A stretch of DNA of 64,000 nt from Candidatus Poribacteria bacterium (GTDB taxonomy: Bacteria; Poribacteria; WGA-4E; PCPOR2b), in contig OZ242326.1 in the NCBI GenBank assembly GCA_965208325.1, forward strand, positions 352,001 to 416,000, in the 5' to 3' direction. Under the pieces are notes generated by a model that worked only from the letters and a program-made list of their open reading frames with translations, ran no database searches and was not told where the DNA came from. Below are positions 1 to 16,525 of the stretch, piece by piece; position 1 is the first letter of the stretch; each line of letters begins with the position of its first letter. The translations under genes were made by a program, and so were the position numbers.

Positions 1-2
1 TC

Positions 3-323
3 ATTCTGCGAGTTGAGGATGACGTTCATAGCATGAATCAAGCATACGACTGGCTGGGAAATGTACGAAGGGCGCGTTGGTTATCGAAAACTAGTTATCC
101 GTTATCCTTTAGTGAGATTGTTATATATGCTGCCAACTTAAAAGTGCCGTATTCAAGACCCGGCGATCTAATTGGAAACTGGCACGATGATGAATCTGGT
201 ATAATTAGCAAAGCGGTGTCTAGCATTATTCCTATTGATTTGTGTTTGGAATCCGACATCGCATACAGATCCAGTGGTAGACGGTATGATGAGGACGACG
301 ATGTGGAGCAACCTGGGCCATGA
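3..323 (+). CDS. hypothetical protein, probably 5'-partial
   Basis: Frame is open from the window start (ILRVEDDVHSMNQ...) to TGA at 321-323. Confidence 0.5.
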   Translation: MLRVEDDVHSMNQAYDWLGNVRRARWLSKTSYPLSFSEIVIYAANLKVPYSRPGDLIGNWHDDESGIISKAVSSIIPIDLCLESDIAYRSSGRRYDEDDDVEQPGP

Positions 324-594
324 AGTCGCACAGCAAGTGTTTTTTATCACCGTGTTGACCCCATTGGTCGTTTTGGGTGCTGTCCTTCTTTAACACCTAA
401 ACCGACCTATGTCGCTTTAGGCTGAATCAGATGAATTTAAAATCAAAACGGAAATGGTTAGGAAGGGTGAATAAGCAATGCCGAAGTCGTCCGAATGAGT
501 TATCCCGGCTTTAGAACATCATGAGGACGTAGTTGATTCAGCGTCAGATTATGAACATGCCGAATTCAATATTTCAAAAGGCGGACATGCAGAA

Positions 595-861
595 TTGGCT
601 GCACATTCTGATGAAATGATAGCTGTGCCCATTGATGCTAAAGCTAATCTTGTGAACCCAACTCAAATTAGCGGTATAGATGAACTAATTGAGCGGCGAT
701 ATGCTAGCGATTCCGCATTAAAGTGTATGCGCTATTTAATGATAGCACTTGGGATGACTACCGACGAGGCAGCCAGAGAACCTGAGTATACTCATGAGCA
801 TCCCGTTGATTTAGAAGCGATAGAGTGGTTCCTCGTTGCTTTTGACAGGGAGATTCAATAA
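595..861 (+). CDS. hypothetical protein, start uncertain
   Basis: Acidic ORF; frame is open back to 499, with an upstream ATG at 478 separated by TGA 496-498. Confidence 0.4.
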   Translation: MAAHSDEMIAVPIDAKANLVNPTQISGIDELIERRYASDSALKCMRYLMIALGMTTDEAAREPEYTHEHPVDLEAIEWFLVAFDREIQ

Positions 862-918
862 TCCATTACATCCGGGGGACGCTGTCGCCTCCCCCTCAGC
901 CGTTACAAAGGAGAGTAT

Positions 919-1110
919 GTGATGTTCGACGTTGTGAATAAACGTAATGTAAAAATCACTTATCAGAATTGCGAGGCCATGCCTCCCGAATCCGCCCTAA
1001 TATGCGTTATGCATGAGGACTCATCGAAAAACGGTCATATTGAAATCTCTGTTTCTGGCGAAGGATTTATTAATCTTGAAATTGTAGCAAAAGAAGATCA
1101 ATCCAATTAA
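919..1110 (+). CDS. small hypothetical protein
   Basis: AAAGGAGAG ribosome-binding site just before GTG/ATG. Confidence 0.5.
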   Translation: MMFDVVNKRNVKITYQNCEAMPPESALICVMHEDSSKNGHIEISVSGEGFINLEIVAKEDQSN

Positions 1111-1231
1111 AGCTCTGATTAGCTCAATGTTTTTGTCGGTTTACATATGCAAAACTAGGCGCGTTATGCACATGTGTCATTGGTGGAGCTCACCGCACTG
1201 GTACGGTTCAAACGTGGGAATTTAAAACAAC

Positions 1232-1777
1232 GTGGTGGAAAAAGGAGGTATTTCTGTGCAAATATTAGAATTCGCAACAATCGCGTTAGTGGTGGTTACC
1301 GGTGCGATGGTCGCGGTTACATGTTGGTATGCTTGGCTTACACGGAAAATACTAAAAGAACAACACCCAATGCGCGTAGACGATCAAAGACCGCTACTTG
1401 TGATGCGCGTATTATCAGGTGACAATTCGGAGACGTTAAAGCTAATTTTAATCGTGGAAAACGTAGGTCGTGGAGTTGCTCTTACGGTAAAATTTGATAC
1501 GGACGAAAATTGGGCGGAAGTGGCCGGCGATTTGAAAGGCGAATACGGCGATATTAATGACGGTATGCGTTACCTCCCACCCGGAGTTAGCGAGAGATTT
1601 GAAGGAAGACCTTTAACCATAGTAAAACAGATGGCGCGTTCGGCACCGAATAAGACGACAATTATTAAAGTGACATATGAGGATTCATTAAAAAATAGGT
1701 ATTACAATAGTGAGGAAATAAAATTTCGTGAGTTTGGATTGAGGCGCAAATTTTTCCTATCGCAGTTAACGGTCTGA
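1232..1777 (+). CDS. membrane-anchored hypothetical protein
   Basis: N-terminal TM helix (ATIALVVVTGAMVAVTCWYAW) followed by a beta-rich soluble domain (ENVGRGVA motif). Confidence 0.7.
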   Translation: MVEKGGISVQILEFATIALVVVTGAMVAVTCWYAWLTRKILKEQHPMRVDDQRPLLVMRVLSGDNSETLKLILIVENVGRGVALTVKFDTDENWAEVAGDLKGEYGDINDGMRYLPPGVSERFEGRPLTIVKQMARSAPNKTTIIKVTYEDSLKNRYYNSEEIKFREFGLRRKFFLSQLTV

Positions 1778-1799
1778 TATTCACACTGATTTACAGTTT

Positions 1800-1967
1800 T
1801 TGTACGTTGGGTTTAACGGGCTCGCGAAACGCAACAATCAGCAGAACTCAAAACGTTATAACAGTGCTCGTAGGTTACTTAGAAACCAGAGAACCACAAC
1901 ACTTTTGAAACCTACGAACGATGCGAAAGCGGTCGGTTGTCCTCTGACTCGACTCAACCTACTCGTA
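1800..1967. repeat. degenerate GTAG-type REP doublet
   Basis: TTGTACGTTGGGTTTAACGG at 1800 and inverted ACTCAACCTAC at about 1952. Confidence 0.55.
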
Positions 1968-2305
1968 TTTTGCCTATCGCTCTATCGCTTGACTGTCACA
2001 CTCCACTCAGGTATATTACCAGTAACTTCCGGCTTTTCAACGCTGACCAAATTCCTACGGATTTGCCTCAAAAACCTCATTCATTGCAATCCAAAAAATG
2101 GAGGTAAATTCAGAGAAAAATCAATTTTGGTCCAATCTTGCGTCCAAATTGCTTTTGAGCAATATTATTTGTCTAATCTCAGTTGGTCGTGCCGTATAAA
2201 ATGAGGTCTTATCTATGTTTGCCATTTAATCACTTTCTTACCATCGAACTTCGGCATATTCTGATTCCGTCATTTTTAACAGCTTATCACTATGGGTGTA
2301 TCAAA

Positions 2306-2884
2306 ATGTTTAGCCGTGCATGCAAATTTATTTGGTCTATTTCGCAGAAACTTACTATAGGTTATTTTGCCATGGTATTCGGATTAGGGGCGCTAATGTG
2401 GGCTGCCTTCGCATTATACAATCTTATATTTCACCCCATCAAGACTACCGTTTGGATATACTCGATTGTTGCTCAGTATATTCCACTTGTATTGTTGTTA
2501 GCATTGTTCTCCGGTGGAATTATAGCCATTGTAATGCGGCTACGCTATAATAGAAAGTCGAACCCCCACGTAAAACCCAAAGAATATTACACGGCGAAAC
2601 TAGAACGTATTCTAAAAGCCTGTGCCGGTATCATAGGGCTCGCGTTCATTTTACTTGCATTGTTCGTGTTAGTTTACGAGAATGCGCCTGTAATCGGTGG
2701 TTTTATTATATCAACATGGACAAAACTCACCAACGCCTTAAACACCACTATCGTCTGTACAATAATTATTTTGTTTGTAATGGTGAATCTTTATAACTCC
2801 TTACGGCGTGAACACCACGAGCTATACCAGGAATTTTGCAAACGCCTAGACGACATTGAGAAACGCCTCGATTCTAGGCGTTAG
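2306..2884 (+). CDS. multi-pass membrane protein
   Basis: About 4 hydrophobic segments and a short C-terminal coiled coil; ATG 2306 preferred over the ORF-track start. Confidence 0.65.
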   Translation: MFSRACKFIWSISQKLTIGYFAMVFGLGALMWAAFALYNLIFHPIKTTVWIYSIVAQYIPLVLLLALFSGGIIAIVMRLRYNRKSNPHVKPKEYYTAKLERILKACAGIIGLAFILLALFVLVYENAPVIGGFIISTWTKLTNALNTTIVCTIIILFVMVNLYNSLRREHHELYQEFCKRLDDIEKRLDSRR

Positions 2885-2939
2885 CATAGTAAAATTACAA
2901 TGTCTCAATGTTTGTAATTACGCCGAAAACCAGGCGGTT

Positions 2940-3075
2940 TTGTACGTCGGGTTTAATGCTCAATTACCTGAATAGGATCGACAGAGCGAATAGCGACGGA
3001 AATAATTACCTAGCGCGTGCGATATATTCTCGCTTCGCAGACGTAAAACCTTCACCGACTCCAACCCAGGGCTGT
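2940..3075. repeat. degenerate GTAG-type REP doublet
   Basis: TTGTACGTCGGGTTTAATGC at 2940 and ACTCCAACCCAG at about 3058. Confidence 0.5.
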
Positions 3076-3222
3076 TGCAACAGTCAAGCACAGTCAATTA
3101 TCCAAGATTTACTAACCTTTTTGCAATACCTGGGAGAGTTTTGCCGTTCCTTTAAGACATTTAGCGTCAAATTGCACGTTTTATTGCGACAATTTTTCAA
3201 TCGCTGAATTAAGAGAAATAAC

Positions 3223-4674
3223 ATGACACAGGAAAGCAAACAGGAACTGAGACGGTTACTAACACAAGCGATGCGACGTTTAGTGATACGATATAAATAC
3301 GGCGGCCCTACATCAATCCCAGTGGCTCTATATAGAAGGTACTTGCAGGAACGCTGGAGATACTACGGTATAGATTTCTTTTCGTTTGCATTTTCGATTC
3401 AACTTGTCCCCGATGTAGCCGATGGCTCCACAAAATCAAGTCTTCTTGCTTACATAAGAAAACAGTTAGCACCCTTTATTGGTGAAAGTACGGACCCAGA
3501 CCTTGATTGTGTCCGCAGCACCAACTATTCAATAGAATGCAATTCTTCATATGGAGATCATCTAGTTACTCATGGAGCCGGCCCCGTTCCGTTGTTTATG
3601 GTTTTAGAACGCCTTCTGGAAATTACCCTTGACCGGGGAATACTGGAAGCGGTATCATTTTTTGACCGGTGTAGTCGCCCCGAGGGTACACAGGTATTTC
3701 TTTGGGACGTTGCATTCCTTGAAGGAGTAAAGATAGAGTCAGAAATCGAACTCTGTAATGGGGTGCGACTTATCCCTTTGCCTTCTGGGGAAATATCATC
3801 GAAAGTCAAACAATATCTGCCCGCTGTTTCTGTCTTTGCCTTTACCGATCATGCGGACTCTTTTTTCGGCAGAACGCTGCTCGTTATTGACCGCCCCGCA
3901 ATTTCTATGCTTCGTAAACCTTCCGAAAAAGCAATTCAGAACGGAACCCGGATTGACAATCTCCCTTTTCAGGTTGAGGTGCCCAATGTAAAATTTCGCA
4001 ACCACCAAGCGATTGGTTCTTTCGATAAGTTATTCTGTCAAGCACTATCGTTAGTATGTAATTCGGCCGTTAAAATTGTAATAACAGGATTTTTTTTGGA
4101 GGAAGAAAACTCGTTCAGTCAGACTCACGGCCCTGGCAAGATGTTTAGGTACTTCGATTCACTCGGAAATCCTCCTGAACCTGGGAAAGTTGAAATAGAA
4201 AAAGCCAATCGTCTATACGAGAAATTGGCTGGTCTAAATTCAAATGATAGAGAGAAATTGCAGATTGCAATCGATAGATGGATAATGTCAAAATCAGAAA
4301 GGAGTCACATTGACAAAATCATTGACCTAGGTATAGCCATTGAAGCGCTATATGTCCCAGATGGGCGCAGCGGCGAGATCAGATTTAAATTGGCTGTTCG
4401 TGCAGCTTGGAATTTGGGAGAAAATGAAGAACATCGAAACAAGTTAATGAAGGAGTTTCAGGAAATATATGATTGGCGTTCCACGATTGTTCATACAGGA
4501 AAACTGCCCAACAAGACAAAGAAAACACCCTTTACTCCAGTAGAGGTAAACCAATTTATCGCACGAGCTCAGGATTTGTGCCGGGATTCAATTTTGAAGG
4601 TTTTAGAAAAGGAGAAATTCCCTGATTGGAACAACCTGATACTCTCCGGCCACGCAGAAAGCACAACTCAATAA
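3223..4674 (+). CDS. HEPN domain protein (ApeA-like C-terminal HEPN), putative defence RNase
   Basis: C-terminal IDLGIAIEALY...FKLAVRAA...IYDWRSTIVHTG containing an RxxxxH motif. Confidence 0.75.
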   Translation: MTQESKQELRRLLTQAMRRLVIRYKYGGPTSIPVALYRRYLQERWRYYGIDFFSFAFSIQLVPDVADGSTKSSLLAYIRKQLAPFIGESTDPDLDCVRSTNYSIECNSSYGDHLVTHGAGPVPLFMVLERLLEITLDRGILEAVSFFDRCSRPEGTQVFLWDVAFLEGVKIESEIELCNGVRLIPLPSGEISSKVKQYLPAVSVFAFTDHADSFFGRTLLVIDRPAISMLRKPSEKAIQNGTRIDNLPFQVEVPNVKFRNHQAIGSFDKLFCQALSLVCNSAVKIVITGFFLEEENSFSQTHGPGKMFRYFDSLGNPPEPGKVEIEKANRLYEKLAGLNSNDREKLQIAIDRWIMSKSERSHIDKIIDLGIAIEALYVPDGRSGEIRFKLAVRAAWNLGENEEHRNKLMKEFQEIYDWRSTIVHTGKLPNKTKKTPFTPVEVNQFIARAQDLCRDSILKVLEKEKFPDWNNLILSGHAESTTQ

Positions 4675-4916
4675 ACTCTCCAAAAACTAACCAAACCAAA
4701 AGAACTACACAATCGCTGCGCTATACAAATTGTCCACCCGAGTGCGGATTTGCATCTTTGTGCGGTATAGTTTAAATTCTTGTAGGTAGCATTTCCTTAC
4801 TCCGTACAAAATTGTTACGATGAAAAAACCACTAAACGCCTCCGAAATACTTGTCTTTTTTCGTTCAAAACCCTTTAACCCATCCTACAAACGCCGAGAA
4901 AAGGAGGTTTGTTATC

Positions 4917-5507
4917 ATGTCCGATGTGGACTACCGGAAATATATGCAATCTGAGGAATGGAAAGCAAAACGACAGACGAAACTGGACGATTGCCGCGGC
5001 AAGTGTGAATGTGAAGGCGGCTGTTACCGGCAAGCGACGCAAATTCATCATCTGCATTACGACACATTGGGAAACGAATGTTTTGACGACTTGCAAGCAT
5101 TGTGTCCGAAATGCCACATGAAAAAGTCTAATGTTCGGGATTTTTATGGTTATGTTGCGAAAGACTGTTGCCAACGCACCCCGCTTAGTGAGGAGGAGAA
5201 GCCGAAGAAAGCCCTGCCGTATTCTGTCTGGCATGAAGCAAACTTTCGTTATCAGATGGACCGCGAGCGATGCACACAAATCGCCGAGACGTTAGGGACG
5301 GACCCCGTAATCGCAGCGCTGCTCGATAACCTCGAAATCATGTTTGCTTGCGGTGACATTGCAGTAGAGGCGAAAATTACAAAGGCAATCGGGCGGTTTG
5401 CCGATGTTGTACCCGCCAAAGAGGGCGGCTTGGATGGGTACGGGCATGAAACCGTTTACAAGTTAAAACCCGAATTTTCAAAACACTTCTCCAATGATGA
5501 GAATTAA
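4917..5507 (+). CDS. HNH endonuclease with C-terminal extension
   Basis: YMQSEEWKAKR, CECEGGC, QIHHLHY, LQALCPKCH; AAGGAGG ribosome-binding site before ATG 4917. Confidence 0.8.
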   Translation: MSDVDYRKYMQSEEWKAKRQTKLDDCRGKCECEGGCYRQATQIHHLHYDTLGNECFDDLQALCPKCHMKKSNVRDFYGYVAKDCCQRTPLSEEEKPKKALPYSVWHEANFRYQMDRERCTQIAETLGTDPVIAALLDNLEIMFACGDIAVEAKITKAIGRFADVVPAKEGGLDGYGHETVYKLKPEFSKHFSNDEN

Positions 5508-5889
5508 ACGCATACCTCGCAGTCGCCGCACAAGTTACGCAAGCAGTGGAAGTCATTCGCCCCATGATAAGGCTAGTTTTGTAGATTCAGTTAAGCGCTC
5601 AAATACCCGATAACGTCGTAAAATAGTTTTGCCTACCACGAAATCCGACGCTGTTGGTCGCGCCGTACCGGTACGTCTAACGATACACATCCGATTACAA
5701 AAATCGCTGGATTAGGCTACTTCACACAATTTTGTTACCACAATGAAATTACCGAACTCCGACGTACATTTGCTTTTTTTCCTACAACACAGCTTCACCG
5801 CCCCGTAAAACCTTAAAATAGACACGAATTTTGGACTGAAAAACAGATAAATATTGAATTAATGTTGGAAACATGATATATTTTTAGAC

Positions 5890-6008
5890 AAAGAAAAAGG
5901 GAGTAGTTGTCAGCTACTCCCCAAAAAATGTGAGCCGATTTTCGTTAGCCTAGCACGCAGACAAAAACGGGCTTTTTTATTGTACCTGACATTCTCGCCG
6001 AATGTCAA
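5890..6008 (-). ncRNA. candidate small antisense RNA with its own promoter and terminator
   Basis: Minus strand: TTGACA-18 nt-TACAAT, about 80 nt containing a hairpin, then GGGAGTAGCTGACAACTACTCCC followed by a T-run. Confidence 0.45.
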
Positions 6009-6053
6009 GAAAATCACAACTCATTCTTCAAAAATTTCAAGGAGAAGGTACAT

Positions 6054-6392
6054 ATGTTTGGCTTGAAGTTCCGAAAGAAGGAAACTCTTGAGTGTAATGC
6101 GTATCAAGCGTTAGAGGCGCGATTTGACAGGTTGGAGCGGGAGATGAAACGAGAAAATGACGATCTTCATGCTTCAATTGATTCTGCACGTGAGCCGATT
6201 CAGGAACTGTGCATATTAATGAAAGAATCTCATACAGATGTCAATGAGTTAAAAGCTTCGTTGCGTGCTTTAGAACGTCAATTGGAGGATATCAGCGTTG
6301 AATTGAAAAGGCTGCGTGCGCCTTTTGGCGGAATTCACTATTTCGATATAAATGAATCAGTTGAACCACCGTCAAATCGTCGGTATGGGTGA
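6054..6392 (+). CDS. coiled-coil hypothetical protein
   Basis: AAGGAGAAGG ribosome-binding site; heptad pattern. Confidence 0.7.
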   Translation: MFGLKFRKKETLECNAYQALEARFDRLEREMKRENDDLHASIDSAREPIQELCILMKESHTDVNELKASLRALERQLEDISVELKRLRAPFGGIHYFDINESVEPPSNRRYG

Positions 6393-6479
6393 AATTAAAG
6401 ATTTGGTTAAAATACCTTACGACGGGGCGTGAGTTGACGTTCCCACAACATTGTGGAAAACCGCTAAATTTTCGTCCTT

Positions 6480-6842
6480 ATGGAGCTAAATATGTCTGAT
6501 ATCCTGAGACAAATAACGCTGGTAAAAGACGCTGAAGATCGCCGTGTAGTTCGTTTTGAGAGTAGAACTAAATTTACTCAGCTCGTTCTGGCTGTTCATG
6601 ATGCTTTGGTAAGCATAGACAAAAAGCTGGCTGAAATAGAATCTGAAGCCAATGGTATTGCTGACCAAACGCACCAGAAAGGCATGGATACCAGAGTTGA
6701 GTCGAGGAGGAACGTTCTTGGAGAAGATGTATCAGATTTGTTTGAACAACTTGAACTTCTCTGTGAGGTTATTTGTCCTGCTGGGGAATTGTTAACGCGG
6801 TACAAAAATCAATTAAAACATAGATTTTCTTCCTTTATGTGA
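6480..6842 (+). CDS. alpha-helical hypothetical protein
   Basis: 120-aa ORF co-oriented with the previous gene. Confidence 0.6.
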   Translation: MELNMSDILRQITLVKDAEDRRVVRFESRTKFTQLVLAVHDALVSIDKKLAEIESEANGIADQTHQKGMDTRVESRRNVLGEDVSDLFEQLELLCEVICPAGELLTRYKNQLKHRFSSFM

Positions 6843-6900
6843 TATGACTTTCGACTTGGTGCGGTGAAACGTATTCTGACCAAACACATTAAATGAAAAC

Positions 6901-7017
6901 TTGTAGGATGAATTGAGCGGCATCAACCGAGCCGATACCGAAGGATTGACTTAACGGCTAGTGAGTGCGATAGATATCAATAGTCTTTTATTGTCTTCTC
7001 CGAAACCCAACCTACAA
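6901..7017. repeat. GTAG-type REP doublet
   Basis: TTGTAGGATGAATTGAGCGG at 6901 and CGAAACCCAACCTACAA at 7001-7017. Confidence 0.6.
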
Positions 7018-7347
7018 GTGCATTGCAAATCGCTCTGTCGCTTGACTTTCACATTCCACATCCGATATATTACTATCATTTCCGGTTTTGAAACCTCGCC
7101 AAATTCCCACGGGTTACCACTTAAAATTTTTTCATCCCTGTGCAAAGGACTGGCGTTAGTTCACTCCGCCACCCGATGAAATAGTAACGGGGCGTCTGAA
7201 AGCATCAAACAAACACCACCGTAAATTATGAAGTGACTCATCCCTATGCTTTTTCATACGGGGCCAGCGCTGATTAACCGATTCCGATTCTGGTTACGGA
7301 AATAGAGTCTTAAATCCAAAAATCAACGTCTCAAATGGAGGTAATCA

Positions 7348-8217
7348 TTGAACAGAAACTGGACGGAACTCCTCAAATCCGTAATTCCTAGACCTTGCAT
7401 CAATCAACGTCCGTTTGTATGTGATGGTTTTCCTGATGAGTGTGAAGTAATTATAATCGGTCAAAATCCAAGAAATGAATTGTGTGTAGACTGGTGGGGC
7501 TTTTGGGACAATAGCTCTGGTTTCGATCGCCTTCGCCTTTCAGATGTCTACCAACAAAAAGGCTTCGACTTAAACACTGGGACACGAGGACGTTTAAACA
7601 AAATCAAGGATAGAGGCGTACAGTGTGTCGAAACCAATGTATATAGCTCTGAAGGTTCGTGCAACCGGAGCGACCGCATTCCTAACCAAACCGTTCTAGA
7701 ACTACTGTTAAGAAACATGCCACACCTCGAGTGGGTAATTGTACATGGCGCCATTGCGCACGACTGGATAAAAAAGTACAGAAATTTGATTCGCTTACCA
7801 GACAATCGGCTTCTCAAACCCTGCCATTTCAGAAACATAAGCGACGACAGGCTAAATCAGATTTGCAGACAGGTAGAGAAAGCCAGATATGAATGGATTG
7901 AAGAAGGCAAACAACTATTACTTTATAATCACATTACTGCAGAACGCGCCATTGCTAGTAGAAATCCTGAACTTCCACCCATGTCGACGCAAGAGATGTT
8001 ATGGGAACAGAGCAATGCGGCCCGCAATTGGTCAAATCGTGTAGAACTTCGTTTTGGTGCACGGGCATTTGCCCCTTATCCGTATGCGCTTCATAGTTTC
8101 AAGGAAAACACTACGGACCTCGATGTTCAAGACCGATGGTCACAATGTAAAGCCCATCTTAATAAAAGTATCGCTAGTCTAGAGAAATATCTTTCCGAAC
8201 TAATCAAGACTTTGTAG
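7348..8217 (+). CDS. uracil-DNA glycosylase-like superfamily protein with extra C-terminal region
   Basis: RPFVCDG..VIIIGQNP, VETNVY, VIVHGAIA, PCHF resemble UDG-fold motifs; GGAGG ribosome-binding site before TTG. Confidence 0.55.
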   Translation: MNRNWTELLKSVIPRPCINQRPFVCDGFPDECEVIIIGQNPRNELCVDWWGFWDNSSGFDRLRLSDVYQQKGFDLNTGTRGRLNKIKDRGVQCVETNVYSSEGSCNRSDRIPNQTVLELLLRNMPHLEWVIVHGAIAHDWIKKYRNLIRLPDNRLLKPCHFRNISDDRLNQICRQVEKARYEWIEEGKQLLLYNHITAERAIASRNPELPPMSTQEMLWEQSNAARNWSNRVELRFGARAFAPYPYALHSFKENTTDLDVQDRWSQCKAHLNKSIASLEKYLSELIKTL

Positions 8218-8545
8218 GCACACGGCGCAATTGAGCGCGCGTACAAGCGACAGTACCGTGTTTTTCGAATTTAATAGGGCACACCCTTTGAAACTCCTGA
8301 TAGTTTTAGATTCACACGGACACGTTATTGAACAATGGATAGAACGATGAACTGAACGAATCGCGAAGACGATAGTCTTGATTCTTCTAAGTTACGCCGA
8401 GTCGCCAAACCTGCCGTCGCGAATCCAGAAATCGCGCCGTGCAGGACAGATCTCCGTATCGCGACCTTTGAATAGTAGTCCAATAACGCGCAAGGGCTAC
8501 GAGATTCGGCTGCGTTTCAACATCGCATGATTATGCGCATTCTCG

Positions 8546-8697
8546 ATCATTGCACATCGTTCAATCATACAAATCACAGTCCAGACAATAAAATATGCTC
8601 AAACCCCCTACAAGCCCGTCAATACCGCCAAAACCCCTCTTTTTTTGCACTATTACTTGTTATCTGTTAATAAGGGTGTTACACTAGTCTCACTATG
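8546..8697 (+). promoter_or_regulatory. copy 1 of a duplicated ~150-bp promoter module
   Basis: Aligns with 12624-12774; TTGTTA-17-TACACT then ATG 9 nt downstream. Confidence 0.6.
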
Positions 8698-8703
8698 AAG
8701 TTT

Positions 8704-8970
8704 TTGTAGGTTGGGTTAAGCGGGTATCCCCAAATACATTGGTATTGAGTATTTGCCGTCCAATCACCGATAAAACTTAATAACAACATGCGCGTAGCGA
8801 ACCCAACGCTTTTGGTAGAATCGTACCGGCGGGGTGTTTCGATTCACGTTCCAACTCCAAAAAAACGCCGGGTTAAGCTTCATCAGTTTTGATCATGTAG
8901 GCAATCAAAGCTACTACCGCTCGCCGCATACTCGCGTTGGTTGGTCAAAATCACTCAACCCAGCCCACAA
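8704..8970. repeat. GTAG-type REP/REPIN-like element
   Basis: TTGTAGGTTGGGTTAAGCGGG ... GAACCCAAC ... CTCAACCCAGCCCACAA. Confidence 0.65.
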
Positions 8971-9005
8971 GGGTACAAGGGTAAAGTAATCCTCTCCCTT
9001 ACCAA

Positions 9006-9229
9006 GCTTACTATTACCCACAAGGCCGCGAAGTCGGATAGGGTACGGGTTGTCTCCCCTCATTCTTGACGTAACCATGCTGTGCAGCACCTGTGGGAAG
9101 GGCTTCCTAGCCCTGATTATCGGGACAGGGATGTCCCTCGTACAGTTTATGCCATACCGAAATGAACAATCGTTCTTAGCCCCAACATTGACGGCGTCTA
9201 CCTCCGGAGACTTGTGGGTAATAGTAAGC
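9006..9229. mobile_element. MITE, 224 bp
   Basis: Perfect TIRs GCTTACTATTACCCACAAG (9006-9024) and CTTGTGGGTAATAGTAAGC (9211-9229), flanked by direct repeat TTACCAA. Confidence 0.85.
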
Positions 9230-9444
9230 TTACCAAAGGGAGCTAGAGGGGGTCATACACGCATCGTCAGACATCGGAATTCGCTCCTACAAGAATCCAA
9301 CCCCTGTAGGAGCGATCTCCGAATCGCGACTTATATTAGACCGATGACTCAACCCCACCCAAATAACCTCCCCTTCTTCACTCACAACTCTCCACGGCTT
9401 TTACCCATGACACTTTTTCACCTACACAGTGCTTTAATCTGCGT

Positions 9445-9485
9445 TTGACAAAAAACCAATTATATCATATTATATTAAGTGAATG
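9445..9485 (+). promoter_or_regulatory. sigma70-like promoter (ATTAAGT family)
   Basis: TTGACA-17-TATTAT followed by ATTAAGTGAATG. Confidence 0.6.
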
Positions 9486-9613
9486 TTCGTATAGATTTTC
9501 GATGGTAGGTTGCGCTGCGAAAAGCTAAATCTGCCTACAATAGCTGCAACCGGTTTTTCTGGCCACTGGCGGCTAGCCACTGGTCGCTGCTTCCCAACAA
9601 AGGAGAAATTGCT

Positions 9614-10027
9614 ATGAAAACGAAACACAGTCTTTTTATAAGCGGTATTGTTGGCGGAGTCATAGGGAGTTTGTTAACGGCGTCGTTGGTTTCACCAGTC
9701 ACAGCGCAAAGGGATAAGTTTGACACGATCCAGTGTTCGCGACTAGAGGTTGTTGATGAAACGGGCATGCCGAGGGTTGCTCTCATGACCGATGAAGGCA
9801 GTGGATTTGTCGGTATTGGTAGCAAAGATAAGGGATTTCTGACAATGGCAAGTCACTTTATAACTTTCGGTGGAAAGGAAAGCAAACCCGTGATAAGGCT
9901 CAGTATCGACGAACGAGGCGGGCATGTGTCTGTCTACGGCAAAGGCAAAGGTCAAGCGGCGATGGGAATCAACGAATACGGAAACGGCGTTGTGAGTACA
10001 TGGGACAAAAACGGCAATCGGCAGTAA
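9614..10027 (+). CDS. secreted beta-rich hypothetical protein (paralog A)
   Basis: AAGGAG ribosome-binding site; signal peptide ending SPVTAQ; KFDTIQCSRLEVVD. Confidence 0.8.
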   Translation: MKTKHSLFISGIVGGVIGSLLTASLVSPVTAQRDKFDTIQCSRLEVVDETGMPRVALMTDEGSGFVGIGSKDKGFLTMASHFITFGGKESKPVIRLSIDERGGHVSVYGKGKGQAAMGINEYGNGVVSTWDKNGNRQ

Positions 10028-10186
10028 ACTCAATGACTGAAACACAACAAAATTTCACAATGCGACTACTAGATTTGAAAAGATGTTTAATGACGGGTAC
10101 ACTCATGTCTGTGATTTCCGACCTTGTTGCCACGGCGATTGGTACCCTTGCGAAGGACATTATACCTTAACGAAGGAGGCATTAAA

Positions 10187-10612
10187 GTGTTTAAAGCGCA
10201 AAATTGGAAGATTGGGATGGTTTATGCGATGCTCGGAACGATAATCGGGTTGCTCCTTTCGCCTGTCACGGCGCAAAGGAATAAGTTTAACACAATCCAG
10301 TGCTCTCAGTTGGAAGTTGTTGATTATGCGGGCGAAGTGCAAGTGCATCTCGGTACGGATATCTATGGCGGTAGTCTCATAGTTTTCAGAGAAGGGGGCG
10401 GTTTTGTGACGATAGGTAGCTCTGAACACAATAGTGGCCTCTCGGTTTTTGACAAAGAAGAGGACTATTTAGTGATGATAAGTAACAATAAACACGGTGG
10501 ACAAGTGGGTGTCTTTAGCAAAGGCAAAGGCGATGCGACAATGGGCATAGACAAATCCGGCAACGGTGTTGTGGTGACTAAGGACAAAAACGGCTATCGA
10601 GATTGGAAGTAA
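10187..10612 (+). CDS. secreted beta-rich hypothetical protein (paralog B)
   Basis: AAGGAGG before GTG 10187; SPVTAQRNKFNTIQCSQLEVVD and C-terminus match paralog A. Confidence 0.8.
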   Translation: MFKAQNWKIGMVYAMLGTIIGLLLSPVTAQRNKFNTIQCSQLEVVDYAGEVQVHLGTDIYGGSLIVFREGGGFVTIGSSEHNSGLSVFDKEEDYLVMISNNKHGGQVGVFSKGKGDATMGIDKSGNGVVVTKDKNGYRDWK

Positions 10613-10633
10613 ACCCAAAGGAATAATGCAACC

Positions 10634-10855
10634 ATGCGAATGCGAGCGCTCATCGATAACGTTTTGCTGACTATGGCGGACGATGACGGAGACTATCTCA
10701 ACGATACCCGTATGCTTGCGTTTGCCGACAAAGCCCTTCGGGAAATAAACGAGCTTTGCCGCTCGATTCACGGCGCGCGTAAAATCAGTGTCAATGCAGA
10801 ACAAGCCAACTACGGAATGCTAGACACCTTTACCAGTTTCTGTAGGTTGGGTTAA
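10634..10855 (+). pseudogene. truncated phage head-tail adaptor-like fragment
   Basis: LIDNVLLTMADDDGDYLND...FADKALREI resembles adaptor N-termini; ORF ends inside the REP at 10841. Confidence 0.4.
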
Positions 10856-10943
10856 GCGGGCCAAATTAAACACACGAAACATGTCGAACGGATATCGGCG
10901 TTTGAATACGTTCGGACCTTGTTAAGATACACCGAACCCAACC
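10841..10943. repeat. GTAG-type REP element
   Basis: TGTAGGTTGGGTTAAGCGGG ... CCGAACCCAACC. Confidence 0.65.
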
Positions 10944-10976
10944 GAAAAAACTTAACATATAGAAAATTCCCAATAC

Positions 10977-11888
10977 ATGCATTACATACGCGGCAAGGCC
11001 AATAGATATTGGTACTGTGAAAGTTTATGGCAGTTATTTAAAGACCTCTTAAAAACTCCATTTGAAAATCAGCCTCAGACCGGCCCTTGGGGTGACGAGG
11101 TCCTAAGTAGAGGTTCCGACTACCATCGACGCGAAATCCTAGATCGCGGGAGGACAAATTTTGATGAACCATTTAATGGGCTTTCTCCCGATGATAAGGT
11201 GTTGATTTACTGTAATCATTATATGCCTATGCACCTTATTAGTTCGTATCAAATATTTCGTGTTCACTCGACATATTTTACGAATCTTCTCGCATCAGTT
11301 GATAATAATGTTGTCTTTATCGACTTTGGCTGCGGCCCATTAACTTCAGGTATTGCATTTTGGGCTTTTGCAAGGCGAAGCAACATTTTTTATTTGGGGG
11401 TTGATTCTTCACATGCCATGCGTGCAAAGGCGGAGAATGTCAACCAATATGGACCCTTCCAAGATTTGGATCCTTTCTTTAGCCGATTTAAACTCATTGG
11501 TAGCCTTACAAAACTGCCCAAAATATTAGACAATATCGTAACGAGGCATAATAAGATACTGATTGTATTCAACTTCTGCTACTTCCTCGCTAGCCGGTAA
11601 TTAGATGCCAATAACTTGAGTAACTTGAAAGATGTCATGGTTCGAATTGTGGAACAGCACAGTAGACAAAATATGTGCATGGTGTATCAAAACCCTGACT
11701 TACCGCAATTACATGAAAATTGGGAAATCCTCAAAGCTAACCTTTCGGGGTTTAGCAGTGTAACAAATGCACCCAATGTCACATGGTTCAACTATGAAAG
11801 CCTAATTACTGGTTCGCGCCACGAAACCACAGTTTACTATGATATACTTTGCAAAGACGAAATTCGACATCAGGAGGACCGGCAATGA
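10977..11888 (+). pseudogene. class I SAM-dependent methyltransferase interrupted by in-frame TAA (11598-11600)
   Basis: FIDFGCGPLT motif I and YLGVDSS motif II; the same frame resumes after the stop (FLASR*LDANNLSNL). Confidence 0.7.
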
Positions 11889-12541
11889 CGCAACCAGCCC
11901 TCTTTCCCGATTTAGATCTTCAACCTCCTTCGCCACATCCTTCACCAAAAAATGAGGACGTTACTGATACAATCAAAGGATTCAATTACATTGAACACTA
12001 CATTGATAAAAATGAACATGAACGATTATTAAAACAGATTGACGAGAACTCGTGGCTACAAGATTTTAAGCGGCGTGTTCAGCATTATGGTTTCAAGTAC
12101 GACTACAAAGCGCGGAAAGTCAACTATGATATGCGTATTGGGCATTTGCCTGAGTGGCTGCAAATACTTGGTCAAAGATTACATGAGGATGGTCACATGC
12201 CGGCAAAACCAGATCAAGTTATTGTCAACGAGTACAAACCTGGGCAAGGGATTTCCAGTCACATTGATTGCGAACCTTGTTTTGAAAATATGATTGTCTC
12301 TCTGAGTTTGGGATCGAGTTGTATCATGGATTTCACGCACAAACTTGACAAGACAAAAAAAATGCCTGTTTGGCTTGCACCGCGAAGCATTATCGTATTG
12401 AAAGGTGAATCAAGATATTATTGGTTACACGGTATCGCTCCGAGAAAATCAGACCAGTGGGATGGTCAAACGTATAATAGACAACGCCGAGTATCGTTAA
12501 CATTCAGAAGGGTGATAATCGAAAACCCTTCAAGGGGATAA
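11885..12541 (+). CDS. AlkB-family 2OG-Fe(II) dioxygenase
   Basis: RRVQHYG, IVNEYKPGQGISSHID (HxD), WLHGI, RVSLTFR; ATGA overlap with the methyltransferase stop. Confidence 0.9.
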   Translation: MTQPALFPDLDLQPPSPHPSPKNEDVTDTIKGFNYIEHYIDKNEHERLLKQIDENSWLQDFKRRVQHYGFKYDYKARKVNYDMRIGHLPEWLQILGQRLHEDGHMPAKPDQVIVNEYKPGQGISSHIDCEPCFENMIVSLSLGSSCIMDFTHKLDKTKKMPVWLAPRSIIVLKGESRYYWLHGIAPRKSDQWDGQTYNRQRRVSLTFRRVIIENPSRG

Positions 12542-12623
12542 CTGTTGCTCGAAGCTTTTTCGAATCTACACATCGGTTTAATTGGTTCGGCAGAGCGCAT
12601 CCGATGAAGTATGCCCTCCTTTA

Positions 12624-12774
12624 ATCATTGCGCATCATTAAATCACACAAATCTCAGCCCCGAAAATAAAACCCTCTCAACCCCTTACTACCCCGTCAAT
12701 AACGCGATCACCCCTCTCTTTCAGCTATACCACTTGACAACTGTTACAATATATGGTAATATTTTACCGTTATG
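12624..12774 (+). promoter_or_regulatory. copy 2 of the duplicated promoter module
   Basis: TTGACA (12734)-17-TAATAT (12757), ATG 9 nt later, no ribosome-binding site. Confidence 0.65.
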
Positions 12775-13275
12775 CTAAAGCAAGAATTATGCTTTAGCGA
12801 ATCGGACATCGACTTCACAATCGATCTCTTCGCGCACTACGGCGACGGCAAAGCCAACGCCAATCGCGTCATTGAGGAATTGTGTGAATACTTTGGGATA
12901 GCGGACAACGCAAGTAACCATAAACTGTTGTCAAACAAAATCCGCACCTTTAATCCCAACAGAAAGGATTGCGCCGATCAGTATCGCAAGCGTTATCTTA
13001 TGAAACGCACAGACAATCTCAAAAATAGACACGAACCCGACGGAATCTATTCGCGGCATAAACAGAAAATCTATTACCGCGCCGTTGACGTGTTGTATGA
13101 AGAGATGACGCCAGCGCTCGCGCTCAAGGTCATTGAAGCCGAAGACCGATTTGCTATCGAAAACAAAAACTTAAACTTACAAGAAAGGATCGAACGCGAA
13201 TGTTTAGCTGACGATACGGGAGATAGTTCTTTCCGTCATGGCGAAACGCAGCCAGATTTACAGCAACCACAGTAG
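12772..13275 (+). CDS. phage hypothetical protein, possible terminase small subunit
   Basis: 167 aa, helical, directly upstream of and overlapping terL. Confidence 0.55.
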   Translation: MLKQELCFSESDIDFTIDLFAHYGDGKANANRVIEELCEYFGIADNASNHKLLSNKIRTFNPNRKDCADQYRKRYLMKRTDNLKNRHEPDGIYSRHKQKIYYRAVDVLYEEMTPALALKVIEAEDRFAIENKNLNLQERIERECLADDTGDSSFRHGETQPDLQQPQ

Positions 13276-15049
13276 GTTTCTGAAAATCTATCGCGCAAAT
13301 CATAATGCCCGCGCACTGCACGCCGTCGAGAGAACTGAAGAGGAACAAGACATCTATCTCCGCGGTTTTGATGATGTCTTAGTCTTTGCCAAGACCCATT
13401 TCCCGGACGTATTCACGGTGAAATGCGGTCCGCACGCGTCTCCTATCCTAAACTGCATTCCCGCCGGTGACCGCGGAAGGCGTGCCAATATCATTGCGCC
13501 CAGAGGATGCGGCAAAAGCACTTACATCGCCGTCATCTACGTACTCCACTGTGTCTACTACAAAGAGGAATACGAGCGCCGCGGATTAATGCCCGATAGC
13601 TTCATTATGATCGTAAGCGGCACTGAAGAACTTGCCACTGACCGCCTGCGCGACATCCGTATCAAAATCGAAGACCATCCCACCTTCCGCCACTTAAAAG
13701 GTCAAGCCAACTGGAGCGCTGATCTCCTCGAAACCCGAAACGGCGTTCGCATCTTGCGCGTCGGCAGGCGCGGCAGAATCCGCGGGCAACTCAAAGACCT
13801 TGCCCGACCCACGCTCATTATCCTCGACGATGTAGAAAACGGTGAGGAAATCCAAAACCCCAAAATCCGCGATAAAAACTGGAAATGGTTCAACGAGGAT
13901 GTTATGCCTGCCGGTCGTATCGACGGCAAGACGAACTTCATTCACATTGACACCGTAAAGCACGAAGAAGCCATCTCCAAACGACTGCATCTCCTTCCAG
14001 ACTGGTACACCCAATTCTACCGTGCTATTGAGAATCCCGTAGACCTGCGCCACCCCGCCGCCGAGCCGTTGTGGGAAGATTGGGAGAAAATCTATACGGA
14101 CATGACGCTCGAAAAAGACGAACGCGACCGCCGGGCGCGCGCATTTTTCGAGCGTCACAAGGGTGAAATGCTGGATGGCGTGCAAGAACTCTGGCCGGAA
14201 ATGCTCTCGTATACCTACATCCGGCGGCTCATCTGCAACGAAGGTTACATTTCCGTCATGCGCGAGCGTCAAAACTCGACGCGCGACCCTTCAAAAGAAA
14301 TCTTCAACATGGAGAGTGCCGTTCGCTTCAAAATCACGCCCGACGGACTCTTGAGAAGCGACGGACGCATAGTCCACTGGAGCGATATCGCTGGCGCCAC
14401 CGTTTTCCTCGATTGGGCTGGCGGCAAGGACGCTTACGATTCCTGCTTCGCCGCCGCTGTGTTCGTGTTGTGGGTACCGCTGCCCCACGCGAATATGAAA
14501 CGCCGCCGCGACCCGATCGCCGCCCTCTCTAACGCCCACGCCTACGTGCTTGATGTCTGGATGGACAAAGTGCCTGTCACTGCGCAATTAGAAGAGACAT
14601 TTAAACTCATTAAGCGTTGCGTCAGCGCAGTGCCGCACGTTCGTTTCGATTCCATCATGCTCGCTGTCGAGGACATCCCGAAAGACACCGGCAACGCGAT
14701 GCACGACATGATTAATCGGGCGTTCGAGGTTGCGCGGAAAAAGTATCAGATGACCTCGCTCGTCCGCATGCAGTACTACCCGCGAAGCATGCGAAAGTTA
14801 GACCGTATCGCCGCCTTGGAACCGCCTATCACCAACGGCTGGATTGCATTCAACGAGACGCTATCCGAGGAGTTTATGCGTCAGTTGCGGCAATTCCCCA
14901 CCGGCGATTTCTGCGACGGACCCGACGCTTTGCAAGGCGCAATAGAGTTGCCCATTACCCGCTTCCCCGCCGAACGGCTGCCGAACGGAATGCCGGAAGA
15001 TGACGATTCGGACCAAATGATGCACATTGTAAGGAGCTATCTATCATGA
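13238..15049 (+). CDS. phage terminase large subunit
   Basis: Walker A APRGCGKST, Walker B IILDDVEN, nuclease domain FLDWAG...KLDRIAALEP...QFPTGDFCDGPDAL. Confidence 0.85.
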   Translation: MAKRSQIYSNHSRFLKIYRANHNARALHAVERTEEEQDIYLRGFDDVLVFAKTHFPDVFTVKCGPHASPILNCIPAGDRGRRANIIAPRGCGKSTYIAVIYVLHCVYYKEEYERRGLMPDSFIMIVSGTEELATDRLRDIRIKIEDHPTFRHLKGQANWSADLLETRNGVRILRVGRRGRIRGQLKDLARPTLIILDDVENGEEIQNPKIRDKNWKWFNEDVMPAGRIDGKTNFIHIDTVKHEEAISKRLHLLPDWYTQFYRAIENPVDLRHPAAEPLWEDWEKIYTDMTLEKDERDRRARAFFERHKGEMLDGVQELWPEMLSYTYIRRLICNEGYISVMRERQNSTRDPSKEIFNMESAVRFKITPDGLLRSDGRIVHWSDIAGATVFLDWAGGKDAYDSCFAAAVFVLWVPLPHANMKRRRDPIAALSNAHAYVLDVWMDKVPVTAQLEETFKLIKRCVSAVPHVRFDSIMLAVEDIPKDTGNAMHDMINRAFEVARKKYQMTSLVRMQYYPRSMRKLDRIAALEPPITNGWIAFNETLSEEFMRQLRQFPTGDFCDGPDALQGAIELPITRFPAERLPNGMPEDDDSDQMMHIVRSYLS

Positions 15050-15291
15050 CTGAATTATCAATAATATCTGAATTAACTAACCCGAAAAAGGCTTCAAAAA
15101 TGAGCATTCTCAACTTATTTTTTCAAATGCTCACAAATGCTCAACCCTGCAAACCCGCTCCCTGTCTAGCTTCGTGCCCATTTTCGCCAATTTTCGTATA
15201 TTTCAAATGCTCACAGAATGCTCAAATCAAAAATCCCAAATCTTGTTCCCAATCGGGTCGCCAAAACCCCAAATCTTTAACAGATTTTGTA

Positions 15292-15332
15292 TTGACTTGT
15301 GTCGAATAATATAATATTATATTAAGTAAATA
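15292..15332 (+). promoter_or_regulatory. sigma70-like promoter (ATTAAGT family)
   Basis: TTGACT-17-TATTAT followed by ATTAAGTAAAT. Confidence 0.55.
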
Positions 15333-15429
15333 CAAATAAAGTATTCAGTGGGTGGTTAAACGTCTTTACTAGCCACTGTCCACTAGTCACTAACCACTGT
15401 TTTTGAAAGGGAGATTTAACATGTTTAGG

Positions 15430-15552
15430 ATTCAGATTTTTTTGCGCCGTGGCAGGCGACGCTAACATCCCGATAATTGTGCAAAGGCACCCAAACAAAC
15501 TACCGAACCCAATATAGACCAACTTAATTTTCCAATGCTGACTGTTACACAC
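15430..15552 (-). pseudogene. truncated third paralog of the SPVTAQ secreted family
   Basis: AAGGAGG ribosome-binding site; QHWKIKLVY...TIIGMLASPATAQK, after which similarity is lost. Confidence 0.65.
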
Positions 15553-16525
15553 TGTGTTTCCCTCCTTTTTTTATGTTACGGACTAAGCCCTCAAATAATT
15601 CGCGGATACCGACACTCCCAAAATTCCAATCGTCCCAAGGCGTACGGTGTGGCAGTTGGAAAACACGCCAAAATTTCATAGTTAACTTCCGCGCCGACTT
15701 CGGTGCGAACAGCTCTAAACCCAGTGTTAGACTGAATTTGCGCGTTTTTTCGTCCCCATAAAATCGCTGTGTTGCGTAGGAAAACTATGAAAACTATGAA
15801 ATTTTCACACAATCACTCGTTAAATTTAACCATAACCGAATGTATCCGCGCAACGATTTTCTCAGGCGCATCCCTGATAAAGCGTTTAACTCGCTTTTTC
15901 GGCTGAAACCGCTATTCGCGAGTGCAACCTTAACAATCGAATTTTACCGAGATTAGTGCAGGACAGATGTAATTGGCATCACGGTTGGCGTGTTGACACG
16001 CATTCCGCTATGATTTAATATAACGCATTTTCCCAGAGAAGTTGATTTTTTTCGGTAATGCCGCCCCAAGAACGCACAATTCATTTCCCCAAAACGAACT
16101 AGACAGGGAAGGTAACATCTCTGTAAACAATGAAAATAGGACCTACCCAGCTCAGTTTGTAGTAGCGCAACTTATTGCGCGTCCGGCAGATAGGTCACGT
16201 CCTTGTACATCACCTGACATATTTTTTATGTAAAAACGGGCAATAAATTGTCCTACTATGAACCTTTGGACGTTCAACAGCGTAACTCCTACCACTATCA
16301 CATCTGATTGACATTATTGAATATAAGGCAGCGGTAAAAACCCCAGATTAGGTCGGTTTTTGCTGGTAGCTTCGCCGCTTCTAGTGTATAATATTGTAAA
16401 TTAAATCGGCACAGGCATTACTGTTAAACGAGATTTTCATCATTACTCAGAAATTCAACCGGTTTGCTTGGATCAAGCTTGTCTTATTCGATAATTCGAT
16501 TGGCGGCTTGAATGGAGTCATTGCC

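Follow-up and report, generated by a model that had tools for sequence, protein, structure and literature searches.

Results

Organization of the locus

We analysed a window of 64,000 nucleotides (nt) from a Candidatus Poribacteria bacterium (contig OZ242326.1, positions 352,001–416,000 of the forward strand), in which a putative small RNA gene lies on the minus strand at 5890–5972, upstream of two small plus-strand open reading frames (ORFs), ORF1 and ORF2. All positions are those of the window unless a genome position is given. The features that carry our account are as follows, with lengths in nt, base pairs (bp) or amino acids (aa).

5979–6008, minus strand: near-consensus sigma-70-type promoter, TTGACA (6008–6003), 18-nt spacer, TACAAT (5984–5979); 11 of 12 consensus positions, no TGn extended −10.
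5987–6007, no strand: perfect dyad, TGACATTC (5987–5994), TCGCC, GAATGTCA (6000–6007); candidate operator of 21 bp with an N5 spacer.
5890–5972, minus strand: predicted non-coding RNA of about 83 nt (80–83), its ends placed from the −10 hexamer and the T-tract.
5933–5973, minus strand: 5′ hairpin of 4 + 8 + 2 pairs, two of them G-U; stable on the minus strand only.
5889–5922, minus strand: intrinsic terminator, a 9-bp stem (5 G-C pairs) with a 7-nt loop (5922–5898), then TTTTTCTTT.
6054–6392, plus strand: ORF1, 112 aa, a coiled-coil-like orphan with an AAGGAG ribosome-binding site.
6492–6842, plus strand: ORF2, 116 aa, a three-helix protein whose unnamed family is very small; start shifted from 6480 on the basis of homologues.

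Within 5300–7400 the minus-strand promoter ranks first of five promoter-like sites, and it is one of only two in positions 1–17000 to reach 11/12. An initial annotation of the locus had read a TTGACA-18-TACAAT promoter here, an inverted repeat at its −35 (about 5987–6007) and an RNA of ~80 nt with two hairpins and a terminator. Promoter and repeat are both present, the former at 11/12 and the latter with perfect arms and a 5-nt spacer, and the RNA holds up as a prediction, with a significant fold (z −3.89) and a 9-bp stem followed by a T-tract.

The dyad spans the minus-strand −35, most of the spacer behind it and the −35 of a plus-strand candidate promoter described below, and its right arm contains five of the six bases of the minus-strand −35. 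It has no second perfect copy anywhere in the genome, and a perfect inverted repeat with 8-bp arms accompanies only 6 of the 336 strong promoters found genome-wide (defined below). Allowing up to three mismatches, we found 43 sites in the genome, against 5 for a reversed control pattern; with up to two mismatches there were only four besides the locus itself. These dyad-like sites, whose positions were not inspected, do not amount to evidence of a regulon.

The RNA would start at G5972 or A5973, 7 nt past the −10, and is laid out as the 5′ hairpin (5973–5933), a U-rich CACAUUUUUU linker and the terminator hairpin. Its predicted fold comprises these two hairpins at −29.5 kcal/mol, which none of 200 shuffled sequences equalled. 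The 5′ hairpin on its own reaches −14.8 kcal/mol on the minus strand (z −2.29, equalled by 6 of 200 shuffles), whereas the same stretch read on the plus strand, where it is followed by T6, folds weakly (−9.8 kcal/mol, z −0.59, equalled by 50 of 200); the hairpin is strand-specific because two of its pairs are G-U. The terminator hairpin (z −4.39, 0 of 200 shuffles) heads the list of 14 terminator-like sites in positions 1–17000, being the best of the 17-kb island in which the locus lies, and is the sole such site called within 5300–7400. It stands on the same strand as the promoter at a distance of about 81 nt, and no ORF of at least 20 aa lies inside the RNA on its strand downstream of the start. 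The genes flanking the RNA are all on the plus strand, so that neither the minus-strand promoter nor the terminator can be assigned to them.

Promoter and terminator signals across the genome

We scanned the whole genome (4.71 Mb, G+C content 0.494) alongside simulated genomes built from local dinucleotide content. Promoter matches of at least 11/12 to TTGACA-N16–18-TATAAT, here called strong promoters, numbered 336 (71 of them perfect), against 56 (2 perfect) in one simulated genome and 35–57 in five. They lay outside ORFs of at least 200 aa in 280 of 336 cases, where random points would give 75, and the start of an ORF of at least 100 aa followed within 300 nt in 208 cases, against 70.5 expected. 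The favoured spacer was 17 nt (195/336), and nearly half of the strong promoters carried a TGn extended −10 (T in 160 and G in 156 of 336; about 47%). From the excess of consensus matches over simulation, and from their placement outside ORFs and ahead of ORF starts, it follows that the organism uses the textbook TTGACA-17-TATAAT consensus and that most of the strong matches are real promoters.

Strong promoters followed at 30–120 nt by a strict terminator were found three times in the real genome and never in any of five simulations; at 30–400 nt there were nine, against 0, 1, 0, 1 and 0. These pair counts come from a slightly stricter re-implementation of the criteria that first gave 13 distinct loci with a strong promoter and then a strict terminator within 30–400 nt. 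The pairing is rare enough (three real, none simulated) that the minus-strand unit is likely, judged by these signals, to be a real transcription unit.

Four of the 13 promoter–terminator units are RNA elements: a transfer RNA (tRNA) operon for tRNA-Leu and tRNA-Met (ARAGORN; genome position 1167980), whose promoter is the identical TTGACA-18-TACAAT; a three-tRNA operon; a cobalamin riboswitch (105 bits); and a PyrR-site-like leader with an 11/12 promoter (L025; G000:C1 4344823–4345000 (+), where G000 is this genome), which scored 53.1 bits against a gathering score of 54. Eight more units of 50–345 nt, without an Rfam match at an expectation value (E) of ≤0.01, are candidate small RNAs or leaders. 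Four of them (L021–L024) lie at G000:C1 1710529–1710448 (−), 3247371–3247492 (+), 505646–505769 (+) and 639502–639343 (−), and the others (L026–L028 and L031) at 4226426–4226672 (+), 2066166–2066425 (+), 4212162–4212427 (+) and 987479–987852 (+). In the unit at 1710529 a perfect promoter leads to a 14-bp terminator, for an RNA of ~45 nt.

Position of the RNA relative to ORF1 and ORF2

The predicted RNA lies 82–164 nt upstream of the ORF1 ATG (6054) and points away from it, with its own promoter between the two. It overlaps neither the coding sequence nor the ribosome-binding site of ORF1; coding DNA stops at 5507 on one side and resumes at 6054 on the other. The RNA would thus be antisense to the ORF1 leader only if a plus-strand transcript began upstream of 5972. 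Three plus-strand features concern this relationship.

5986–6014, plus strand: candidate ORF1–ORF2 promoter, CTGACA (5986–5991), 17-nt spacer, GAAAAT (6009–6014); 9/12.
5854–5882, plus strand: alternative upstream promoter candidate, TTGAAT-17-TATATT with TGn; 9/12.
6190–6200, plus strand: 11-nt stretch identical to 5930–5940, in ORF1 codons 46–49; candidate trans-pairing site, recognized post hoc.

The candidate at 5986–6014 fully overlaps the minus-strand promoter: each −35 abuts the −10 of the other within the same 30 bp, with predicted starts near 5972 and 6021, and a transcript from 6021 would have no overlap with the RNA. The upstream candidate at 5854–5882, if used, would give a messenger RNA (mRNA) with a leader fully complementary to the RNA. 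Because the dyad creates the overlapping plus-strand promoter, divergent and mutually exclusive transcription appears at least as likely as an antisense-to-leader arrangement.

Since 5930–5940 is repeated exactly in ORF1, the RNA is perfectly complementary, over 11 nt, to codons 46–49; matches of this length were reached by 1.8% of RNAs after shuffling (p about 0.018) and by 1.0% of stretches drawn at random from the genome (p about 0.010). Pairing of the RNA with five local translation start regions was not significant by unconstrained duplex energy, with 0.05–0.87 of shuffled RNAs pairing equally well or better. A plus-strand hairpin at 6033–6075, with a 9-bp stem (AUUUCAAGG / GCUUGAAGU), encloses the Shine–Dalgarno sequence and AUG of ORF1 and is not significant (z −1.76).

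ORF1 and ORF2 are both preceded by Shine–Dalgarno-like sequences and have codon-usage scores of 0.079 and 0.078 per codon, respectively, where the 5th percentile of true frames is 0.062. Both are charged, hydrophilic helical proteins. ORF1 gave coiled-coil noise only in Pfam, PADLOC and NCBIfam, and no Atlas neighbour reached 0.9 (best 0.86). ORF2 falls in no family of Pfam, PADLOC, NCBIfam or PHROGs, and its own family consists of eight known sequences. One close homologue (79% identity) occurs in the sister species G002, where its 5′ end has been cut off by an IS3-family insertion, and six distant relatives, full- or part-length, were found by exhaustive HMMER searches (30–52% identity, E 4e-10 to 5e-5), all of them singletons of metagenome assemblies, on contigs of 1.2 kb to 5.1 Mb. 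The family alignment shows conserved N- and C-terminal motifs, and the structural model has three long helices (predicted local distance difference test 79) without a match in PDB at E ≤0.001 (best 1.5). A search of 159 genomes of the order and 176 of the phylum with the family profile returned only the organism's own genome and G002, together with three marginal matches (E 0.004–0.006) inside long unrelated frames; the same profile added no member from a set of 5.8 billion proteins. Nor were ORF2 relatives found in viral contigs or in phage and plasmid records. Single-protein scans returned four weak loci without relation to ORF2 from genome contigs, and from metagenome contigs either nothing or a spurious hit (L019), in which the shared peptide lies inside a different protein, at least 215 aa long and running off the contig end. 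Neither ORF1 nor ORF2 bears any mark of a toxin, of an antitoxin or of a protein that binds DNA.

Searches for relatives of the RNA

Rfam at gathering score gave no match in the whole window, and a permissive Rfam scan of 5700–6200 gave sub-threshold noise only (the best match on the predicted RNA being to STnc290, 21.9 bits where 60 are needed, E 0.19). ARAGORN found no tRNA or transfer-messenger RNA in the window. The only homologous locus, in G002, has lost the RNA and ORF1 stretch beside the IS3-family insertion. This element has two overlapping transposase frames (L003 315–1413; G002:C1 about 1766055–1767153) and sits at codon 3–4 of the ORF2 homologue; the sequence on its left side has no relationship to the window. 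No RNA run is listed for 5000–8300. Contigs from four public runs, compared over 5400–7000, match the window letter for letter through the RNA, ORF1 and ORF2, and are uninformative on transcripts. Two of the runs (X3 and X4) differ from the window at two letters, 5434 and 5438.

The surrounding island

The locus lies in a low-G+C island (0.40–0.46, against 0.494 for the genome) that takes in window positions 1 to ~16,500 and ~1.4 kb before the window, and that is bordered by ordinary genes on one side and PSCyt/PSD1/DUF1501 genes on the other. A cyanobacterial origin was rejected, as no HIP1 site was found and the window has these PSCyt, PSD1 and DUF1501 genes. Its content is mostly unassigned ORFs, with an HNH endonuclease (4851–5507; phrog_333, E 1.3e-7), a methyltransferase-like ORF, an AlkB-like ORF and a large terminase (13238–15049; phrog_38, E 7.5e-55). 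None of its 39 small ORFs has a Pfam match, and no helix-turn-helix or repressor family was recognized in these or in the 5 + 14 larger ORFs. One 483-aa ORF (3223–4674 (+)) matches no Pfam family, and its sole hit (E 8e-5) is to phrog_28161, whose function is unknown; towards the C-terminus, reading by eye picks out the R-x4-H stretch RSTIVH, which recalls HEPN nuclease motifs.

At 12772–15049 the terminase of the window comes after a 167-aa ORF that may be its small subunit; phage structural genes were not otherwise seen. Elsewhere in the genome the terminase has five further matches, four whole and one a fragment (904805, 4687856, 3138167, 2462805 and 2586685), making six TerL matches in all. 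The HNH gene is likewise duplicated, as a discrete 688-nt unit (window 4878–5565; genome 3684873–3685508 (−)) with 90.6% nucleotide and 88% protein identity and unrelated flanks; the homology stops at 5565, well before the RNA. This duplication may explain breaks in the public-run contigs at 5462–5491 and the variant bases at 5434 and 5438. Sister species G002 shares only patches of the island, and carries its ORF2 remnant ~460 nt before a terminase pair. We considered the island as a prophage remnant; that idea is weakened by the occurrence of the terminase in recurring stand-alone pairs and of the HNH gene as a separate duplicated unit.

Discussion

The reading we favour, and hold tentatively, is that the locus comprises an orphan small RNA gene sharing a 30-bp, dyad-centred control region with ORF1–ORF2. 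On this proposal a single-copy, lineage-specific gene would be driven by the near-consensus sigma-70-type promoter, and an RNA of ~83 nt would be transcribed away from ORF1–ORF2 and stop at the Rho-independent terminator. The signals and their rarity are observed directly; from them we infer transcription and the ends of the RNA. The 21-bp dyad would let the same 30 bp act as a weaker plus-strand promoter for ORF1–ORF2, making the RNA and the ORF1–ORF2 mRNA alternative outputs of one control region, and the choice between them could lie with polymerase, whose binding would be mutually exclusive, with a single dimeric protein bound to the dyad, or with the two together. If the RNA has a target, it could lower ORF1–ORF2 expression in cis, by pairing with plus-strand read-through across 5890–5972, or in trans, by pairing with the 11-nt match in ORF1.

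Several observations weigh against this reading. The RNA matches no Rfam family; BLAST found it in its own genome only as itself and returned nothing from 40 relatives, a covariance model (R1, built from a single sequence) recovered it in no other of 151 genomes of the order (150 others), and phage records gave no match. ORF1 has no homologue among 5.8 billion proteins, and ORF2 compared with the truncated G002 copy gives a ratio of non-synonymous to synonymous rates (dN/dS) of 1.03, from 6 synonymous and 23 non-synonymous differences. The minus-strand promoter lacks the TGn that ~47% of strong promoters in the genome have, its 18-nt spacer is the less usual length (94/336, against 195/336 with 17 nt), and by a hand estimate an 11/12 promoter should arise by chance ~0.5 times in an A+T-rich island of 17 kb. 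Strict terminator-like sites exceed simulation only ~1.5-fold (274 real, 186 simulated). Plus-strand promoter candidates at the 9/12 level are at chance frequency (5 sites, against 3.9 ± 2.3 expected in shuffles), no DNA-binding protein is recognizable near the dyad, and the 11-nt match was found post hoc, with 8 of its 11 bases buried in the stem of the 5′ hairpin.

An alternative that we consider unlikely and take seriously is that the locus has no present function: either its signals came together by chance in A+T-rich foreign DNA, or it is a donor relic out of use. This would suit an orphan locus in a patchwork island with active insertion sequences and a low G+C content of 0.41–0.45 against 0.494, an RNA conserved nowhere among the genomes searched (its own, the 40 relatives and the 150 others of the order), an ORF2 without purifying selection relative to its close relative, and signals each of which should occur by chance ~0.5–1 times per island (again by hand estimate). 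It does not sit well with the joint arrangement of promoter and terminator, on the same strand, in order and 81 nt apart, which arose in none of five simulated genomes; with the strand specificity of the 5′ hairpin; or with a perfect dyad placed exactly on the promoter.

A cis-antisense role seems to us distinctly doubtful. Here the ORF1–ORF2 mRNA would start near 5889, or arise by read-through from the HNH gene, and the RNA would be fully complementary to the first ~83 nt of a 165-nt leader, control being exerted by duplex-dependent cleavage, transcriptional interference or attenuation. The upstream candidate at 5854–5882 has the TGn that is enriched among the strong promoters of the genome, and the T-tract of the RNA ends just where a plus-strand transcript from this candidate would start. 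No plus-strand terminator is called between the HNH stop (5507) and ORF1, so that read-through is possible, and the predicted fold of the long leader has three hairpins (z −2.47). Against this, the upstream promoter matches at 9/12, a level reached by chance; the first plus-strand hairpin with its U6 is too weak to make a convincing attenuator; the ribosome-binding site and coding sequence lie outside the RNA; and a strong promoter firing head-on within the leader, together with another plus-strand promoter beyond it, leaves no need for a long leader.

It is improbable that the unit serves as an insulator, the minus-strand promoter being merely the divergent partner of the ORF1 promoter and the terminator acting only to block antisense transcription into the HNH and upstream genes, with an RNA that has no target. 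The plus-strand orientation of all neighbouring genes would fit, as would the distance of 390 nt between the terminator and the HNH gene end, and the lack of significant pairing to neighbouring translation start regions, but the stable strand-specific 5′ hairpin is then unexplained, as is the fact that a near-consensus promoter faces no gene while the genes receive a weak one.

We also weighed a more elaborate proposal, in which the locus is a self-contained two-output switch and a new phage-derived module. The overlapping promoters of the dyad would yield either the 83-nt RNA or the ORF1–ORF2 mRNA, the RNA would in addition silence ORF1 through the 11-nt seed (5930–5940 against 6190–6200), and the module would accompany stand-alone terminase units, with ORF2 as effector or dyad binder. 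As one joint claim this is quite improbable. The idea that the dyad is a DNA-level site, such as a symmetric cleavage or recognition site of packaging machinery, could draw on the HNH endonuclease to one side, the large terminase in the island and the ORF2 remnant close to the terminase pair of G002, but we regard it as hardly credible given that the dyad coincides exactly with promoter hexamers, that other phage genes are absent from the island, that the terminase pairs are recurring stand-alone units and that the HNH gene belongs to a separate unit whose homology ends at 5565.

Comparison with known systems

An orphan small RNA gene with a shared control region, as we favour, resembles several known arrangements in part. 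The sar RNA of P22 (immI) and OOP RNA of lambda are ~70–80 nt long, are made from strong, constitutive-type promoters, end at intrinsic terminators and lie opposite to neighbouring genes, and in P22 immI symmetric operators cover overlapping promoters. The RNA described here is similarly short, with a predicted strong promoter and an intrinsic terminator, opposite to its neighbours and in a mobile or phage-related region. Whereas sar and OOP reach into the ribosome-binding site or the end of the coding sequence of the opposite gene, it covers intergenic DNA only; the locus has no repressor or phage structural genes, and no sequence or Rfam similarity was found. A phage-immunity antisense RNA would be complementary to the ribosome-binding site or the end of the coding sequence in a neighbouring phage regulatory gene, and would lie in an immunity region with repressor or antirepressor genes; neither trait was found here.

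Plasmid countertranscripts such as CopA of R1, RNAIII of pIP501 and RNAI of pT181 are short folded RNAs encoded in a leader, on the strand opposite to the gene that they control. The predicted RNA shares with them a 5′ hairpin and terminator, a place upstream of genes and the opposite strand. In those plasmids the leader spans the RNA gene, and attenuators have a leader terminator, whereas here the long leader is hypothetical and the plus-strand hairpin weak; nor is there a replication gene at the locus.

The overlap of candidate promoters recalls Escherichia coli bioA/bioBFCD with bioO, and tetR/tetA of Tn10, in which opposite promoters share ~30–40 bp under a symmetric site. At our locus two candidate opposite promoters are likewise centred on a dyad in the same 30 bp. 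Unlike in the bio and tet systems, one output would be a non-coding RNA of ~83 nt, the plus strand offers only a weak promoter match, and the locus has no known regulator. MerR-type control combines a dyad between −35 and −10, an over-long spacer of 19–20 bp and a MerR-family regulator. The placement of the dyad fits, as it begins at the second base of the −35 and stops 2 nt short of the −10, but the spacer is 18 bp, not 19–20, and the island yielded no protein of the MerR family.

Type I toxin–antitoxin systems (hok/sok, txpA/RatA, bsrG/SR4) pair an antisense RNA with the mRNA of a toxin that is usually a hydrophobic membrane peptide of <60 aa. They have in common with our locus a small RNA in antisense orientation with its own strong (here predicted) promoter, small ORFs and a mobile island; ORF1 and ORF2 differ from such peptides in being hydrophilic helical proteins of 112 and 116 aa, and no toxin family of PADLOC, Pfam or NCBIfam was found in them. 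In type III (ToxIN-like) systems the toxin gene is preceded, on its own strand, by an RNA of tandem repeats, with a terminator between. No tandem repeats occur in 5500–6900, and the predicted RNA is on the strand opposite to ORF1–ORF2.

Of the unit envisaged by the initial annotation there remains a likely non-coding, two-hairpin unit on the minus strand with its dyad; that this RNA is antisense to the leader of 6054–6392 did not emerge from the analysis. The proposed attenuation draws no support from the plus-strand hairpin, which is weak (z −0.59) and is not called as a terminator, and a role as an RNA antitoxin finds no footing in two hydrophilic helical proteins without a toxin family and an RNA without tandem repeats. 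The suggested kinship with phage immunity leaders likewise finds no support, as no repressor-like protein is recognizable in the island.

Significance

The locus adds one more example, as yet without a name, to a familiar kind of element. As a singleton to which no function is assigned it has limited wider importance, and because the organism is uncultured it is hard to test. Among the papers listed by a literature search, none dealt with small RNAs in the lineage; if transcribed, the RNA may count with the earliest small regulatory RNAs to be proposed in these uncultured bacteria.

The locus itself may prove less useful than what the genome-wide scan brought to light: consensus promoters and intrinsic terminators are in use in this organism, and scanning for the two together recovers tRNA operons, a cobalamin riboswitch and a sub-threshold PyrR-like leader, and flags short units that are as yet unassigned. 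Such scanning may offer a practical route to annotating non-coding RNAs and promoters in genomes beyond the reach of culture.

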